From the sequence record NC_019500.1: a stretch of DNA of 64,000 nt; one strand, given 5' to 3'. Every line of letters starts with the position of its first letter. The first letter of the stretch is position 1. The notes beneath the pieces were generated by a model that saw nothing but the letters and a program-made list of their open reading frames with translations, had not been told where the DNA came from and made no database searches. Origin of the DNA: Escherichia phage Bp7. Below are positions 59,331 through 63,409 of the stretch, piece by piece. The translations under genes were made by a program, and so were the position numbers.

Positions 59331-59356
59331 TGCTGTTCAATTGAATAGTGTATAAT
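59331..59356 (+). promoter_or_regulatory. candidate middle promoter for uvsY (MotA-box-like TGCTGTTCA + TATAAT)
   Basis: tgctgttca 59331-59339, TATAAT 59351-59356 at 11-bp spacing. Confidence 0.4.
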
Positions 59357-59387
59357 GGTCCTATGGTTATTACACAGGAAACATGCG

Positions 59388-59822
59388 ATGAGTAAAGAGA
59401 TTGAATATAAATTAGAGTCGTTTCAAGATGCTTTGGATGAAGATTTAAAGATTGATGGGACTCGTTTACAGTACGAAGTACAGAACAACGTTTTGCTGCA
59501 CAGCAAATGGCTAAGGCTGTATACGAATTGTAAGAAAGAAATAATGAGATTAGAAATCCAGAAAAAGACCTCACTTAAGAAGCGATTAGATTTCTACACG
59601 GGCCGTGGAGAGCCTGGTGATGAGGTTTGTATGGACCAATATGAGAAGTCTGAATTAAAGACCGTTATGGCTGCGGATTCTAGTGTAATTAAAATCGACA
59701 CATCAATTCAGTATTGGGCTTTATTACAAGACTTTTGTAGTTCAGCACTTGATGCTATTAAGGCGCGTGGTTTTAACCTTAAGACCATGCATGAGATGAG
59801 ACAATTTGAGGCAGGTAAATAA
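59388..59822 (+). CDS. uvsY: UvsY recombination mediator
   Basis: 144 aa from ATG 59388; LQYE..NN..L.SKWL, RLDFYTGRG, YEKSELKTV, C-terminal IKARGF.LK..HEMRQFEAGK match T4 UvsY. Confidence 0.9.
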   Translation: MSKEIEYKLESFQDALDEDLKIDGTRLQYEVQNNVLLHSKWLRLYTNCKKEIMRLEIQKKTSLKKRLDFYTGRGEPGDEVCMDQYEKSELKTVMAADSSVIKIDTSIQYWALLQDFCSSALDAIKARGFNLKTMHEMRQFEAGK

Positions 59823-59920
59823 TGAGACGTACTAAAAATACCAAACCCATTAAAGTAGATGCCGATAAAATGAAACTTCTTCAAGAATTCATTAATGCCG
59901 CTTTATCAAGTAATAAATAG
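59822..59920 (+). CDS. small basic peptide (32 aa; uvsY.-1 position)
   Basis: ATG overlaps uvsY stop. Confidence 0.3.
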   Translation: MRRTKNTKPIKVDADKMKLLQEFINAALSSNK

Positions 59921-59948
59921 ATATGTAAGTTAAACTAAGGAGACAATC

Positions 59949-60116
59949 ATGTCAGATAAGATTTGCGTTGTCTGTAAAACTCCAATCGATGCTGCATTGG
60001 TTGTTGAAACAGAAAAAGGTCCGGTTCATCCGGGTTCATGTTATAATTACGTTCAAAGCCTGCCTGTTACGGAAAACACTGAAGAACAGCTGAACGAAAC
60101 CCAATTACTACTTTAG
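59949..60116 (+). CDS. small zinc-ribbon-like protein (55 aa; uvsY.-2 position)
   Basis: MSDKICVVCKTPID...HPGSCYNY with CxxC...C spacing; SD aaggag upstream. Confidence 0.4.
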   Translation: MSDKICVVCKTPIDAALVVETEKGPVHPGSCYNYVQSLPVTENTEEQLNETQLLL

Positions 60117-60143
60117 TCTAGTGAGTCTAGCCCTTTAGGGTTA

Positions 60144-60173
60144 CCGGCCCTTCCGAAAGGTTGGGCCTTTTTT
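60144..60173 (+). terminator. rho-independent terminator at the convergence of the uvsY operon and uvsW.1
   Basis: stem ggccc...gggcc followed by TTTTTT. Confidence 0.55.
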
Positions 60174-60175
60174 GT

Positions 60176-60403
60176 TTAGAAATCTTCCTCTTCCTCGTCG
60201 TCCATCGACTCCAATTCAGCTCTCTTACCAGCCAATGCATCACGCACGCTAATATCATCCGAATCACGAAGTTCGGCTTCCTTACTACGAGTTTTGTAAT
60301 ACTTTTCCAATTCCTTCAGACCATCCATAGTCTGACAAGAACCAATTTTAGCCATGAAGCTTTCAATAGATGCTTCCTGAATAACTTCTTTAAAGGTTTT
60401 CAT
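60176..60403 (-). CDS. UvsW.1 small acidic protein
   Basis: 75 aa (T4 UvsW.1 76 aa) with acidic C-terminal tail DDEEEEDF. Confidence 0.6.
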   Translation of the reverse strand: MKTFKEVIQEASIESFMAKIGSCQTMDGLKELEKYYKTRSKEAELRDSDDISVRDALAGKRAELESMDDEEEEDF

Positions 60404-61182
60404 AATATTTCCTCGAAAAATTTGGTAACCATTTTACCGTAATGCACATTAGGATAACCGGCTTTAATGGCTTCTTTTGTAAATTTACCAACTTTAAGCT
60501 TTCCTGTATTTATCCAAAGCTCTTTAAGCTCATCATACATTAACCAGTGTGGATATTTCTTAGCCAAAGTAGCTTGCCAATTTTTAGAATGGTCCTCAGA
60601 CCTAAACGATTTCTTTACACCTTTATTGGCTTTGCCAGCTTTTGAACACGTTTCATAATCTCCGGCTTTAATAGGTGTAAATCCTTTCATTGCTTTAGAC
60701 CTTTTGGCTATGGTCTCTTTGGATTGCTTGGAGCCTTTATTTTTGGTCCAAGCCTTTTCTAAAGCTTTTAATTTGGCTTCTGTTAATCCAACTTTAGCCA
60801 TAGCTTTTCGGTGTATTTCTCTTCGTTCATCAGTCCATTCATAAGAACCGTTTGTATTACCAATCATGGCTTCGCTTATTAATCTAGAAGCATTTTCTTT
60901 TAAAATGGAAATAGACCTAGAGCTTATCTCATTTAATCTTTTGCCACATGTCATACCAAATGCGGCACGCCATAATTTTCCACCTTGAGCTTTAGCCAAG
61001 ATTATATGGCCCAAAATATGTTCCCTAATAGTCAATGCAACTAAATTGTTAGGGTCATCGGAACCACCTATCGACTTAGGAATAATATGATGAATTTCGA
61101 TTTTACAGGGCGCAGTAGCTTTGGTCCATCCTCTGGACCTAGCATTCTCTATTAAATCATCGTAAATTTTCTGATAATTCAA
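60400..61182 (-). CDS. free-standing HNH homing endonuclease inserted between uvsW and uvsW.1
   Basis: 260 aa; N-terminal HNH motif CKIEIHHIIPKSIGGSDDPNNLVALTIREH; basic C-terminal DNA-binding-like region; start and stop overlap both neighbours. Confidence 0.75.
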   Translation of the reverse strand: MNYQKIYDDLIENARSRGWTKATAPCKIEIHHIIPKSIGGSDDPNNLVALTIREHILGHIILAKAQGGKLWRAAFGMTCGKRLNEISSRSISILKENASRLISEAMIGNTNGSYEWTDERREIHRKAMAKVGLTEAKLKALEKAWTKNKGSKQSKETIAKRSKAMKGFTPIKAGDYETCSKAGKANKGVKKSFRSEDHSKNWQATLAKKYPHWLMYDELKELWINTGKLKVGKFTKEAIKAGYPNVHYGKMVTKFFEEIL

Positions 61183-62682
61183 AGCTGCACCTCTTTCATA
61201 ACATAATTAAATTTCTCGTCGGCGTATCGTTGTATACGTTCCAATCCATGTTTCAGGCAATAATTTAAATGAACATATTTCTTTTTAGAATCTTTAGATT
61301 TAGGGCGGACTCCCATATCATCCACGAGGTCCCAGACTTGGGCCACTTGTTTGCTATCGTGCTTACGTAGAACACGCCCAATTGTTTGCAGAACAATGAT
61401 TTTAGATTTTACGCCGTGAGCAAATACAACGTGGTGAAGGTTCTTAACGGAAATACCAGTAGAGAACACACCATAACTTGCCACAACAATAATACCCTTA
61501 CCATTTTCCGCCATTACTTTCAGAGCATTACGCGTTTCGGTATTAACTTCACCTGATACGTAATAAACTTCTTTATGTTGCTCTTTAACCATTTCAAAAA
61601 GAGTTTTACCGTGTTCGATGTTTTTAAACATCAGGAATACGTTCTCTTCTTTCTTAGCGAGTTTAACAGCTAAATTAGCAACCCATTTATTACGACGAGT
61701 AGCCTTAGTAATGACCTTGATTTCTGATTGGTAATCTTTACCTTTCATCTTAACAGTGAATTCGTCTGGGTATCGAAGGAAAATACTGTTGATTTTAAGG
61801 TCGGTAACCTGTCCTTCTTCCATTAACTGGGAAGTGGATACCGGCTTAAACACATCACCAAACAAACCCATATATTGCATTAAATTAGCTTTACCATCTT
61901 TTAAAGAACCAGACAAACCGAATTTAAACATACAGTTGGTTAGGCCTTCGATGATAGTAGAAATAGATTTACCTGTAGCCAAATGGCATTCGTCGTTCAT
62001 AAACATACCGAACTGAGCAAACCATTCTTTAGGTTGCTTGATAGCAGTTTGATAAGTTGAAACGTAAATCATTGCATCAGAATCACGAGCAGTACCTGAA
62101 CGAATACCAAGCATTGCTGCTTTAGGGAACAATCGATAATCGATGAAGTCATTAATCATCTGGTCGACAAGTGCAGTAGTAGGAACCAGAATAAGGATTT
62201 TACCTTCATAGTTCTCAACGTAATATCGACTCAGGAGCGCCTGGATTAATGATTTACCTGCGGATGTAGGTAAATTCAGAATTGCACGACGTTTTGTCAG
62301 GCCGTTGTATACGGCTTCATTCTGATACCAATGAGGCTCAATCTTGGTAGACCCTGAATAAATTTCTTGAGAAGCTACCCATGAATCAAAATCTTCACGA
62401 GAAATATCTTCCTGTTCAAGAATACGCGGGTCAATCCACAGAGAATATTCAAATTGTTCAGCGAACTTTTTAATTTGAGGGACAAGTCCATAAGGGCAAG
62501 TTTACGGCAGTTACGTAATCTAGAAGAAGAAGACTTCCATCCCATTGCCCATAACGAAATTTAGGGTTGAATTTATATCCATCGGCTTCAAAGCTAAAAT
62601 AGTCTCTGAGTTCGTAGAATGTGGATTCATCACACTCAATACGAACATGACTAAAATTATCGAAATGTACTTGAATTTGCAT
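61179..62682 (-). CDS. uvsW: UvsW helicase (SF2); reading frame needs a 1-nt correction at the G-run 62494-62496 (ORFs 62470..62682 and 61179..62159)
   Basis: N-terminal ORF VHFDNFSHVRIECDESTF.ELRDYFSFEADGYKFNPKFRYG.WDG matches the T4 UvsW N-terminus; the -1 frame continues with PYGLVPQIKKF...NLPTSAGKS (Walker A), DECH, QTIGRVLR. Confidence 0.8.
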
Positions 62683-62696
62683 AAGTAATTCTCAGT

Positions 62697-62704
62697 TATA
62701 AATA
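62697..62704 (+). promoter_or_regulatory. T4 late promoter TATAAATA for inh
   Basis: TATAAATA 34 nt upstream of ATG 62738. Confidence 0.55.
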
Positions 62705-62710
62705 TAGTTA

Positions 62711-62718
62711 TATTTATA
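62711..62718 (-). promoter_or_regulatory. T4 late promoter TATAAATA for uvsW
   Basis: plus-strand tatttata = minus-strand TATAAATA, about 29 nt upstream of uvsW ATG. Confidence 0.55.
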
Positions 62719-62737
62719 CACCAACAAGAGACTAATT

Positions 62738-63409
62738 ATGGATACTCAATATATTGAAGAGCTTCGTGCACTCGAAGATAAAAAAGAAGCTAAAGCTAAG
62801 TTAATCGAATACGGCGAACAGTTCGGTTTAAAACTTAAGAAAACCCGTTCGTTTGATAATTTGATTATCGATATCTCTGAAGGCCTTAAAGCCCTGGCTG
62901 ATGAACCACTTCCAGAAACCGAAGGGTTGTCTATTTCTGATTTGATTGATGCTGATAACGAACTCACCGGTGGTAATGACTTTATCGAAGGTGTAGAACC
63001 AGCTAAAGAAGAAGCCACCCTGTTGTTCGATGCTCCTGAGGCTGTAGTCGAAGTCATTGAGGTAGCCGAACTTCCTAAGGTCGAGATTATTGAAGAAGAT
63101 GTCCCATTTGACGAAGAGAAATTCAAAGAGGCTGTAGCCAAGGTTGTTGAATTGGAAAAACCTGTATTCTCTTTACCTGAAAACTTCAGCCCTAATCTTT
63201 TGCTTATCGGTAAGAACCCTGGCTATTGCACCGTTCCTTGGTGGATTTACCAATGGATTTCTGAGACCCCGGATTGGAAAGAACGTCCAACTGCTTTCCA
63301 ACATCCTTCTGCCCACCAAACATTATTTAGTCTGATTTATTACATTAATCGTAATGGTTCAGTATTAGTACGTGAAACTCGTAACTCATCTTTTGTCACT
63401 TTAAAATAA
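62738..63409 (+). CDS. inh: probable Inh (inhibitor of prohead protease); by size and position
   Basis: 223 aa, acidic, between uvsW and hoc as in T4. Confidence 0.5.
   Translation: MDTQYIEELRALEDKKEAKAKLIEYGEQFGLKLKKTRSFDNLIIDISEGLKALADEPLPETEGLSISDLIDADNELTGGNDFIEGVEPAKEEATLLFDAPEAVVEVIEVAELPKVEIIEEDVPFDEEKFKEAVAKVVELEKPVFSLPENFSPNLLLIGKNPGYCTVPWWIYQWISETPDWKERPTAFQHPSAHQTLFSLIYYINRNGSVLVRETRNSSFVTLK

Follow-up and report, generated by a model that had tools for sequence, protein, structure and literature searches.

What lies between uvsW and uvsW.1 in Escherichia phage Bp7, and where in the genome of a relative would its product act? In the 64,000-nt window analysed here (NC_019500.1; coordinates refer to this window unless another sequence is named), a 260-aa open reading frame (ORF) with a TTG start lies at 60400..61182 on the minus strand, between the uvsW helicase gene and uvsW.1. 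The original prediction, which was made by reading the DNA without database searches, described it as a mobile HNH endonuclease gene wedged between two genes that are neighbours in T4 and overlapping each of them by 4 nt, and its position, strand, length and overlaps are exactly as claimed there. We consider the ORF, with a probability of about 0.8, to be a free-standing homing endonuclease gene of the T4 Mob (HNH) type that is functional or was so until very recently, an assignment based on the ORF itself and on its matches to Pfam, PHROG and the T4 mob loci. Judging from its flanks, the gene is placed within the last uvsW codons and comes with a substitute uvsW tail and stop codon.

The protein was recognized as an HNH endonuclease from its N-terminal region. 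Pfam HNH (PF01844) matched residues 28-50 with 26.7 bits (gathering cut-off 21.4), the motif EIHHIIPKSIGGSDDPNNLVALTIREH was found at residues 29-55, where an N-terminal HNH motif had indeed been proposed, and PHROG 655 ('homing endonuclease') matched with E = 3e-47. The HNH catalytic core was placed by homologue alignment and an AlphaFold model at residues 29-59 (61006..61098, minus strand) and includes E29, H31, H32, N46, E54, H55 and H59. All seven residues are invariant in nine homologues, the opposite of the missing catalytic site that the original prediction had named as evidence against itself, and the same seven columns are invariant or nearly so in a 46-sequence alignment, in which N46, H55 and H59 are invariant and H31 and H32 are at least 90% conserved. 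The domain is Pfam HNH; the HNH_3 (PF13392) and AP2-like domains that had been suggested for a search were both undetected in the protein even at E <= 10. NUMOD3 gave a weak match at residues 150-167 (E = 0.22, 11.9 bits against a cut-off of 20.4), and NCBIfam returned a sub-threshold match of the HNH core to IscB and nothing else.

The AlphaFold model (mean pLDDT 81, pTM 0.45) showed a beta-beta-alpha unit at residues 28-66 with pLDDT above 90, composed of strands at residues 28-32 and 47-51 and a helix at residues 52-66. The middle region was helical and of lower confidence, with residues 172-191 disordered, and the C-terminal residues 196-259 (60406..60597, minus strand) formed an all-helical module of four helices, also with pLDDT above 90. 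This module, which presumably binds DNA, can be aligned with the C-terminus of a VR5 ORF labelled MobE. Foldseek found weak HNH-domain matches only (probability 0.96, E = 0.35), and the structure searches gave nothing informative outside the HNH core.

All five mob loci were matched when the protein was compared with the whole T4 genome by tblastn (E from 2e-25 to 7e-16). The match at the mobD position was full-length (residues 1-258, 28.7% identity, E = 2e-25); it should be noted that the mobD coding sequence is unannotated in the T4 record used and that mobD was assigned by position. The mobE, mobC, mobA and mobB loci matched the N-terminal 64-106 residues with 40-53% identity, and residues 154-255 matched the T4 segA position (36% identity, E = 2e-7). 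The mob genes of T4 are modular, with an HNH domain joined to varied C-terminal regions (PMC2988022), and the Bp7 protein has this build. With its own start and stop between two ORFs, the gene is free-standing and lies outside any intron or intein. A group I intron was considered and rejected, with no Rfam family above chance in 59900-62800.

The distribution of the gene supports a mobile insertion, as originally proposed. Dhakavirus (JS98-like) T-even phages match the region with 92-97% identity. In 36 of the 40 best-matching records, some of which are RefSeq and GenBank copies of one phage, uvsW is followed directly by uvsW.1 and ~780 bp are absent exactly here; the other four comprise two with the Bp7 ORF and two with a different HNH ORF. 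The 1497-bp uvsW of JS98 runs directly into uvsW.1 with an ATGA overlap, and 644 records have a contiguous match to this uninterrupted junction, so that the gene is far from being carried here by all relatives, a pattern that would have spoken against mobility. The adjacency of uvsW and uvsW.1 in T4, on which the original prediction relied, was borne out by the T4 ORFs, and no gene is reported to separate the two in T4 or in five other T4-like genomes (PMC1524935).

The presence of the gene is sporadic, and most members of each genus are without it. Within Dhakavirus, the only other carriers were UGJNEcP3 and UGJNEcP4 (98.8% amino acid identity, same place), in which the ORF is annotated 'homing endonuclease', and two metagenome assemblies that encode an identical protein beside uvsW and uvsW.1. 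Orthologues with 53-76% amino acid identity, the same slot and the same 4-nt overlap were found in Gaprivervirus (P479, Yersinia phage P8), Karamvirus (EnC07, KMB20, UFV01, KMB17) and Acinetobacter Hadassahvirus (e.g., AbTZA1), and distant relatives (40-45% identity) with an I-TevI-like tail occupy the same position in one Vibrio and one Aeromonas phage. Decayed copies were also found. In IMGVR_UViG_650627005_000001, just after the uvsW stop at ~995 of that locus (L059), ~65 N-terminal codons are followed by a stop and ~20 C-terminal codons (..GHLGKMVAKF..) lie in another frame, and the endonuclease ORFs of Maestro, Morttis and AB-Navy71 are split. The junction comparison across T4-like genomes that had been proposed as a check thus revealed that one and the same site may be empty, occupied or decaying, which is the life cycle expected of a homing endonuclease gene.

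The decayed copies raise the question of whether the Bp7 gene is itself defunct, having arrived by homing and persisting because precise loss is rare, with a protein that no longer cuts. Its TTG start would agree with this, and many T4 mob genes are without demonstrated activity (Table 1, PMC2988022). However, the Bp7 frame is full-length with all catalytic residues intact, an identical protein is found in three genomic backgrounds, and dN is 0.003 against a dS of 0.093 relative to UGJNEcP3. The dN/dS of 0.035 shows purifying selection on the endonuclease coding sequence, and we consider a relic improbable. Nor is the length of the frame accidental: at the stop-codon frequency of the window, an open frame of 260 codons would be expected by chance at ~4e-8 per start.

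The junctions indicate how the gene is fitted between its neighbours. The presumed target gene, uvsW (61179..62682, minus strand; Pfam UvsW_N, ResIII and Helicase_C), has its frame broken at 62496-62513, and the ORF directly upstream of the endonuclease gene encodes the C-terminal portion of the helicase (ResIII and Helicase_C; PHROG 'DNA helicase', 3e-138). Downstream is uvsW.1 (60176..60403, minus strand; 75 aa; Pfam UvsW-1 PF11637, 2.5e-24). The endonuclease TTG (61182-61180) and the uvsW stop TGA (61181-61179) overlap in the 4 nt TTGA, and the endonuclease stop TGA (60402-60400) and the uvsW.1 ATG (60403-60401) overlap in the 4 nt ATGA. The insertion point is within the last uvsW codons, and no spacer is involved. 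On the left side, carriers have a replacement uvsW tail (...NYVMKEVQL-stop in Bp7 versus ...NYVMKQVDL-stop in JS98), and the Shine-Dalgarno (SD) sequence GAGGTG and the TTGA resemble the native uvsW/uvsW.1 junction of JS98 (AGGTGG, ATGA). On the right side, the endonuclease ORFs of P479 and PSD2002 end in the recipient's own uvsW tail and stop; the right end of the Bp7 ORF has diverged (...KFFEEIL-stop), yet it provides GAGGA and ATGA for uvsW.1. Since an SD and an overlap are present at both junctions, uvsW and uvsW.1 both retain coupling signals, and the endonuclease start signal looks like a diverged copy of one native coupling signal.

The uvsW side of the insertion also differs from non-carriers over a much longer stretch. 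In every same-genus carrier/non-carrier pair examined, mismatches rise from 0-2 to 4-13 per 30 nt over the last ~235-240 nt of uvsW. Besides Bp7 and JS98, the pairs for the Bp7 lineage were P479 vs VR20, EnC07 vs PG7 and PhT2-v2 vs PhT2, and those for a second HNH lineage described below were PSD2002 and UP19 vs JS98, SP18 vs VR20, and ACG-C40 vs T4. The foreign, putatively co-converted tract of Bp7 covers the last ~235 nt of uvsW (61183..61418, minus strand) and is 72-77% identical to JS98 against a background of 92-100%. Of the last 80 uvsW codons, 29 differ synonymously and 14 non-synonymously, compared with 8 and 0 in the preceding 150 codons; across pairs, 27-29 of the 80 codons are synonymously changed and 12-15 non-synonymously, compared with 5-13 and 0-2 in the preceding 150. 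The Acinetobacter phages PhT2-v2 and PhT2 have 0 mismatches over the 450 nt before the switch. Downstream of the gene there are 0-1 mismatches per pair, and the tract is thus one-sided. Between Bp7 and the Logan contig L066, the endonuclease gene and the tract differ by 0.5%, and inh and hoc by 6.7-7.8%, in keeping with recent spread.

That PhT2-v2 might be a laboratory derivative of PhT2, in which case the pair would have captured the gain of the gene as it happened, was rejected, as the two are 97-98.5% identical and the paper mentions no derivation; they are still usable as a natural carrier/non-carrier pair. PhT2-v2 (L018) has a further annotated homing endonuclease gene at 2026-2703 of that locus, between the major head and head vertex protein genes, which PhT2 (L019) does not have.

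In the Bp7 lineage, the switch begins, to within ~20 nt, at one and the same homologous codon in Dhakavirus, Gaprivervirus, Karamvirus and Hadassahvirus, four genera of two subfamilies. Here non-carriers have HPVKSK (CCR) and carriers HG(V/I)KSK (GGN), just before LQTIGRVLRK of motif VI. The Bp7 Gly codon GGC, where same-genus non-carriers have the Pro codon CCR, is at the left edge of the tract (61413..61415, minus strand) and marks the predicted immunity or target position. The codons for QTIGRVLR (61365..61388, minus strand), which from general knowledge of SF2 helicases we take to be motif VI, lie in the tract and have many synonymous differences from non-carriers. Among 33 IMG/VR loci with the Pro allele, 31 of them assessable, none had an endonuclease gene after uvsW. 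Of nine loci with the Gly allele, five were empty T4-like sites, two carried the second lineage, one carried the Bp7 lineage and one a decayed copy. In L059, the decayed copy described above, uvsW retains the Gly allele.

In intronless homing with a cut site apart from the gene, the interval between the two is always co-converted (PMC2988022). Since the tract runs from a fixed point to the gene, we infer a target near the AHPVKS codons, ~235 bp upstream of the insertion, and a contribution of the Pro to Gly change to immunity. An element of the same type might instead cut the uninterrupted uvsW/uvsW.1 junction itself or a site beside it, as in classical homing, in which the recognition site is split by the insertion; the tract would then be ordinary co-conversion of variable length. 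The insertion point is precise and shared, the recipient uvsW tail at the ends of the P479 and PSD2002 ORFs implies that a conserved sequence was interrupted, and intron-encoded endonucleases cut within 25 bp of their insertion sites (PMC2988022). However, resection from a cut at the junction should yield variable, two-sided tracts, whereas the observed tract is strictly one-sided and its far end stays within ~20 nt of one codon in four genera; moreover, the typical distance between gene and cut site is hundreds of bp for the free-standing endonucleases of T4 (PMC2988022). We therefore regard cutting at the junction as unlikely. The uninterrupted junction had been suggested as the substrate for a cleavage assay, but it is probably not the enzyme's site of action, because the flank comparison points to a position upstream in uvsW.

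The second HNH lineage (231 aa) is inserted after uvsW in precisely this slot in PSD2002 (L003, 2001-2696), UP19 (L004, 2003-2698), ACG-C40 (L016, 2001-2693) and SP18 (L015), and ranges over Dhakavirus, Gaprivervirus, Tequatrovirus and many Klebsiella, Proteus and Yersinia phages. It shares with the Bp7 lineage the slot, the TTGA overlap and a near-identical replacement uvsW tail, and its N-terminal 65 residues are 55% identical to those of the Bp7 protein. However, the C-terminal two thirds are unrelated, with NUMOD3 repeats (5.6e-12) and an I-TevI-like DNA-binding tail. The tract boundaries also differ in that they vary (-241 to -199) and leave the Pro codon unchanged, and the range of genera is different, including Tequatrovirus. 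A second-lineage copy in ESCO10 (OM386655.1, 101106-101798), 98.3% identical to that of PSD2002, adjoins a 'tail completion protein' gene and not uvsW, and may be an ectopic insertion.

The alternation of lineages in one slot bears on whether the gene has been domesticated for the benefit of the phage, for example to exclude the markers of competitors or to tune the expression of uvsW and uvsW.1, and is no longer selfish. T4 Seg and Mob enzymes do cause marker exclusion of related phages (PMC2988022), and the coupling signals of both neighbours are preserved in Bp7. However, most members of each genus do without the gene, and two unrelated lineages alternating in the slot, together with decayed copies, form a pattern of selfish gain and loss and not of conserved function. 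Domestication is thus very improbable.

The expression signals are those of a promoter-less cassette. The endonuclease start region (61179..61193, minus strand), as read from the DNA, consists of the SD GAGGTG (61193-61188), a 5-nt spacer and the TTG within TTGA, and this layout of SD and overlap is common to 11 carriers, with either TTG or ATG. The 3' end of the gene (60400..60414, minus strand) supplies the SD GAGGA (60414-60410) and the ATGA overlap for uvsW.1 and mirrors the JS98 uvsW/uvsW.1 junction. No endonuclease-specific promoter was found above the shuffled background and no terminator within the gene above the shuffled expectation, and a hairpin sequestering the ribosome-binding site (RBS), as in T4 and Aeh1 mobE, was unsupported (z = -0.69). 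A T4-type late promoter motif, TATAAATA, is located 29 nt upstream of the uvsW ATG (62711..62718, minus strand). The count of TATAAATA-type motifs across the window is not above chance and position alone supports this one as a promoter, which is the probable source of the transcript carrying the endonuclease gene. A GC-rich hairpin after uvsW.1 (60147..60168, minus strand; -15.6 kcal/mol, z = -0.93, not significant alone) is probably the conserved bidirectional terminator reported downstream of uvsW.1 (PMC1524935). The simplest reading of these signals is that uvsW, the endonuclease gene and uvsW.1 share one late message, with weak coupled translation from the TTG. Weak, coupled expression from late messages is the pattern of the promoter-less seg and mob cassettes in T4 (PMC2988022).

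The nuclease activity, target position, cutting mode and expression pattern of the Bp7 protein are predictions, which can be combined into a mechanism. Without a promoter of its own, the gene would be transcribed late from the uvsW promoter as a uvsW-endonuclease-uvsW.1 message, and a weak TTG, preceded by an SD and a stop/start overlap like the native coupling signal, would allow low, uvsW-coupled expression. In a mixed infection with a relative lacking the gene, the enzyme would recognize uvsW at the AHPVKS codons and nick or cut it. Recombination-dependent replication would use the carrier genome as template and copy the interval from the cut to the insertion, along with the gene, into the recipient. 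The outcome would be intronless homing with obligatory one-sided co-conversion, and the uvsW of the carrier would be protected by its differing site, including the Pro to Gly codon change.

The uvsW gene of Bp7 also has a disrupted frame, which the original prediction placed a few hundred bp from the endonuclease gene; the distance from the ORF start is actually ~1.3 kb, and that from the inferred target ~1.1 kb. Compared with all relatives, Bp7 uvsW has 5 additional nt (62509-62513), 2 additional nt (62496-62497) and several substitutions, all within ~45 nt. The break is one patch (62496-62513, uvsW codons ~57-63): the N-terminal frame stops at 62470, and from the patch onwards the correct frame runs uninterrupted as far as the normal stop. 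The gene is intact (1497 bp) in UGJNEcP3, JS98, PSD2002, UP19 and the Logan contig L066. The patch was found in no other sequence, with none in relatives and no exact match in IMG/VR. A Logan contig with an identical endonuclease has an intact uvsW but represents a different phage (96.5% identity), and the second contig with an identical endonuclease ends short of the patch. As only four indels separate Bp7 from UGJNEcP3 over 12 kb, the window sequence is not generally error-ridden. The frame break may reflect either a genuine recent mutation or an error of assembly, and it has no evident link with the endonuclease gene. A link with SegE was considered and rejected, since the patch is not at the site of SegE.

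Several points weigh against the view that the ORF is an active homing endonuclease gene whose target lies in uvsW. TTG is a poor start codon, and a frame shift at uvsW codon ~57, if real, would uncouple translation of the endonuclease from that of uvsW. The distant same-slot members in Vibrio phage PVA23 and Aeromonas phage AsFcp_2 keep the Pro codon. The donor of the tract was not found among the carriers compared; the Bp7 tract is about equally distant from P479, EnC07 and PSD2002 and no closer to P479 or EnC07 than the genome background is. Literature searches found no paper describing this uvsW/uvsW.1 site or protein. The fixed boundary could arise from a preferred crossover beside the conserved motif V codons, or from later erosion by back-recombination to the edge of the immune site. 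In addition, the near-identical block shared by Bp7 and L066 extends to ~62117, beyond the tract; because the block is longer than the tract, this comparison shows mosaicism and not the target. We put forward only tentatively the combined proposal that the left edge of the tract is the recognition or cut site of the lineage at the AHPVKS codons and that the change from CCR to GGN (Pro to Gly) is the immunity determinant.

Known T4 enzymes provide several parallels. T4 mobD lies between nrdC.11 and mobD.1; the activity of its product is listed as not determined and Table 1 of PMC2988022 gives no target for it, so that MobD is no guide to function. MobD and the Bp7 protein both combine an N-terminal HNH domain with a helical C-terminal region, both are free-standing, and mobD is the sole T4 locus that aligns with the Bp7 protein over its full length; however, the genomic site is another and the identity is only 29%. 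MobE is a free-standing HNH enzyme encoded between nrdA and nrdB that nicks nrdB, according to Wilson and Edgell 2009 as cited in PMC2988022. Its N-terminal HNH domain is 50.6% identical to that of the Bp7 protein over 79 residues, both genes are cassettes that lack a promoter and whose start codon overlaps the stop of the gene before them, and both are associated with flank co-conversion and, presumptively for Bp7, with an adjacent conserved DNA-metabolism gene as target. In contrast, the C-terminal regions are unrelated, the target of MobE is nrdB and not the presumed uvsW, and the AUG start and internal terminator of T4 mobE and the RBS hairpin of Aeh1 mobE were not seen in the Bp7 gene.

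The GIY-YIG enzymes of T4 offer further comparisons. SegE is likewise a free-standing endonuclease associated with uvsW, and co-conversion of flanks has been documented for its homing into RB30 (PMC2988022), but it belongs to the GIY-YIG family and its gene lies between inh/hoc.1 and uvsW, at the opposite end of uvsW. The window is without segE, as inh and uvsW adjoin (62683-62737) where T4 has this GIY-YIG gene between them. Intronless homing of SegF and SegG is attributed to Belle 2002 and Liu 2003 (cited in PMC2988022). The mechanism proposed for Bp7 would be the same as theirs, with a cut site apart from the gene and an interval that is always co-converted; they differ in being GIY-YIG enzymes that make double-strand breaks, whereas the HNH protein of Bp7 would make a nick or a break.

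Two features of the neighbouring sequence were recorded separately. Two uvsW.1 alleles occur in Dhakavirus, MKTFKEVIQ...AKIG in Bp7, UGJNEcP3 and PSD2002 and MKSFKEVIY...SKIS in JS98 and UP19, and the allele is not strictly tied to the occupant of the slot, be it either endonuclease or none. Window positions 59721-59914, downstream of a uvsY-like ORF (59355-59822), are 93-96% identical to JS98 but 68-75% identical to UGJNEcP3, with a 6-nt length difference at 59837; this mosaic patch is unrelated to the endonuclease gene.

Free-standing seg and mob genes abound in T4-like phages, and the ORF of the close relatives already bears the label 'homing endonuclease'; what is new here is a target prediction for a T4 Mob family member that GenBank annotators had labelled. 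For this uncharacterised Mob-type enzyme the prediction is specific, namely a target ~235 bp upstream of the gene in uvsW and immunity through a Pro/Gly codon. The locus also provides a natural data set, in which two HNH lineages share one slot over at least six genera and the slot has been sampled empty, occupied and decayed, and for annotation it explains the anomalous divergence of the last 80 uvsW codons in carrier genomes. If the proposed target is true, T4-type phages, which natively have Gly and among which no member of the Bp7 lineage was found, would either resist the enzyme by nature or carry the trace of an earlier invasion, and two HNH lineages whose DNA-binding tails are unrelated would be rivals for one slot while recognizing neighbouring but different uvsW sites. 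The one-sided, sharp-ended tract would also fit a nick converted by replication into a one-ended break, a reading that bears on how HNH nickases promote homing.

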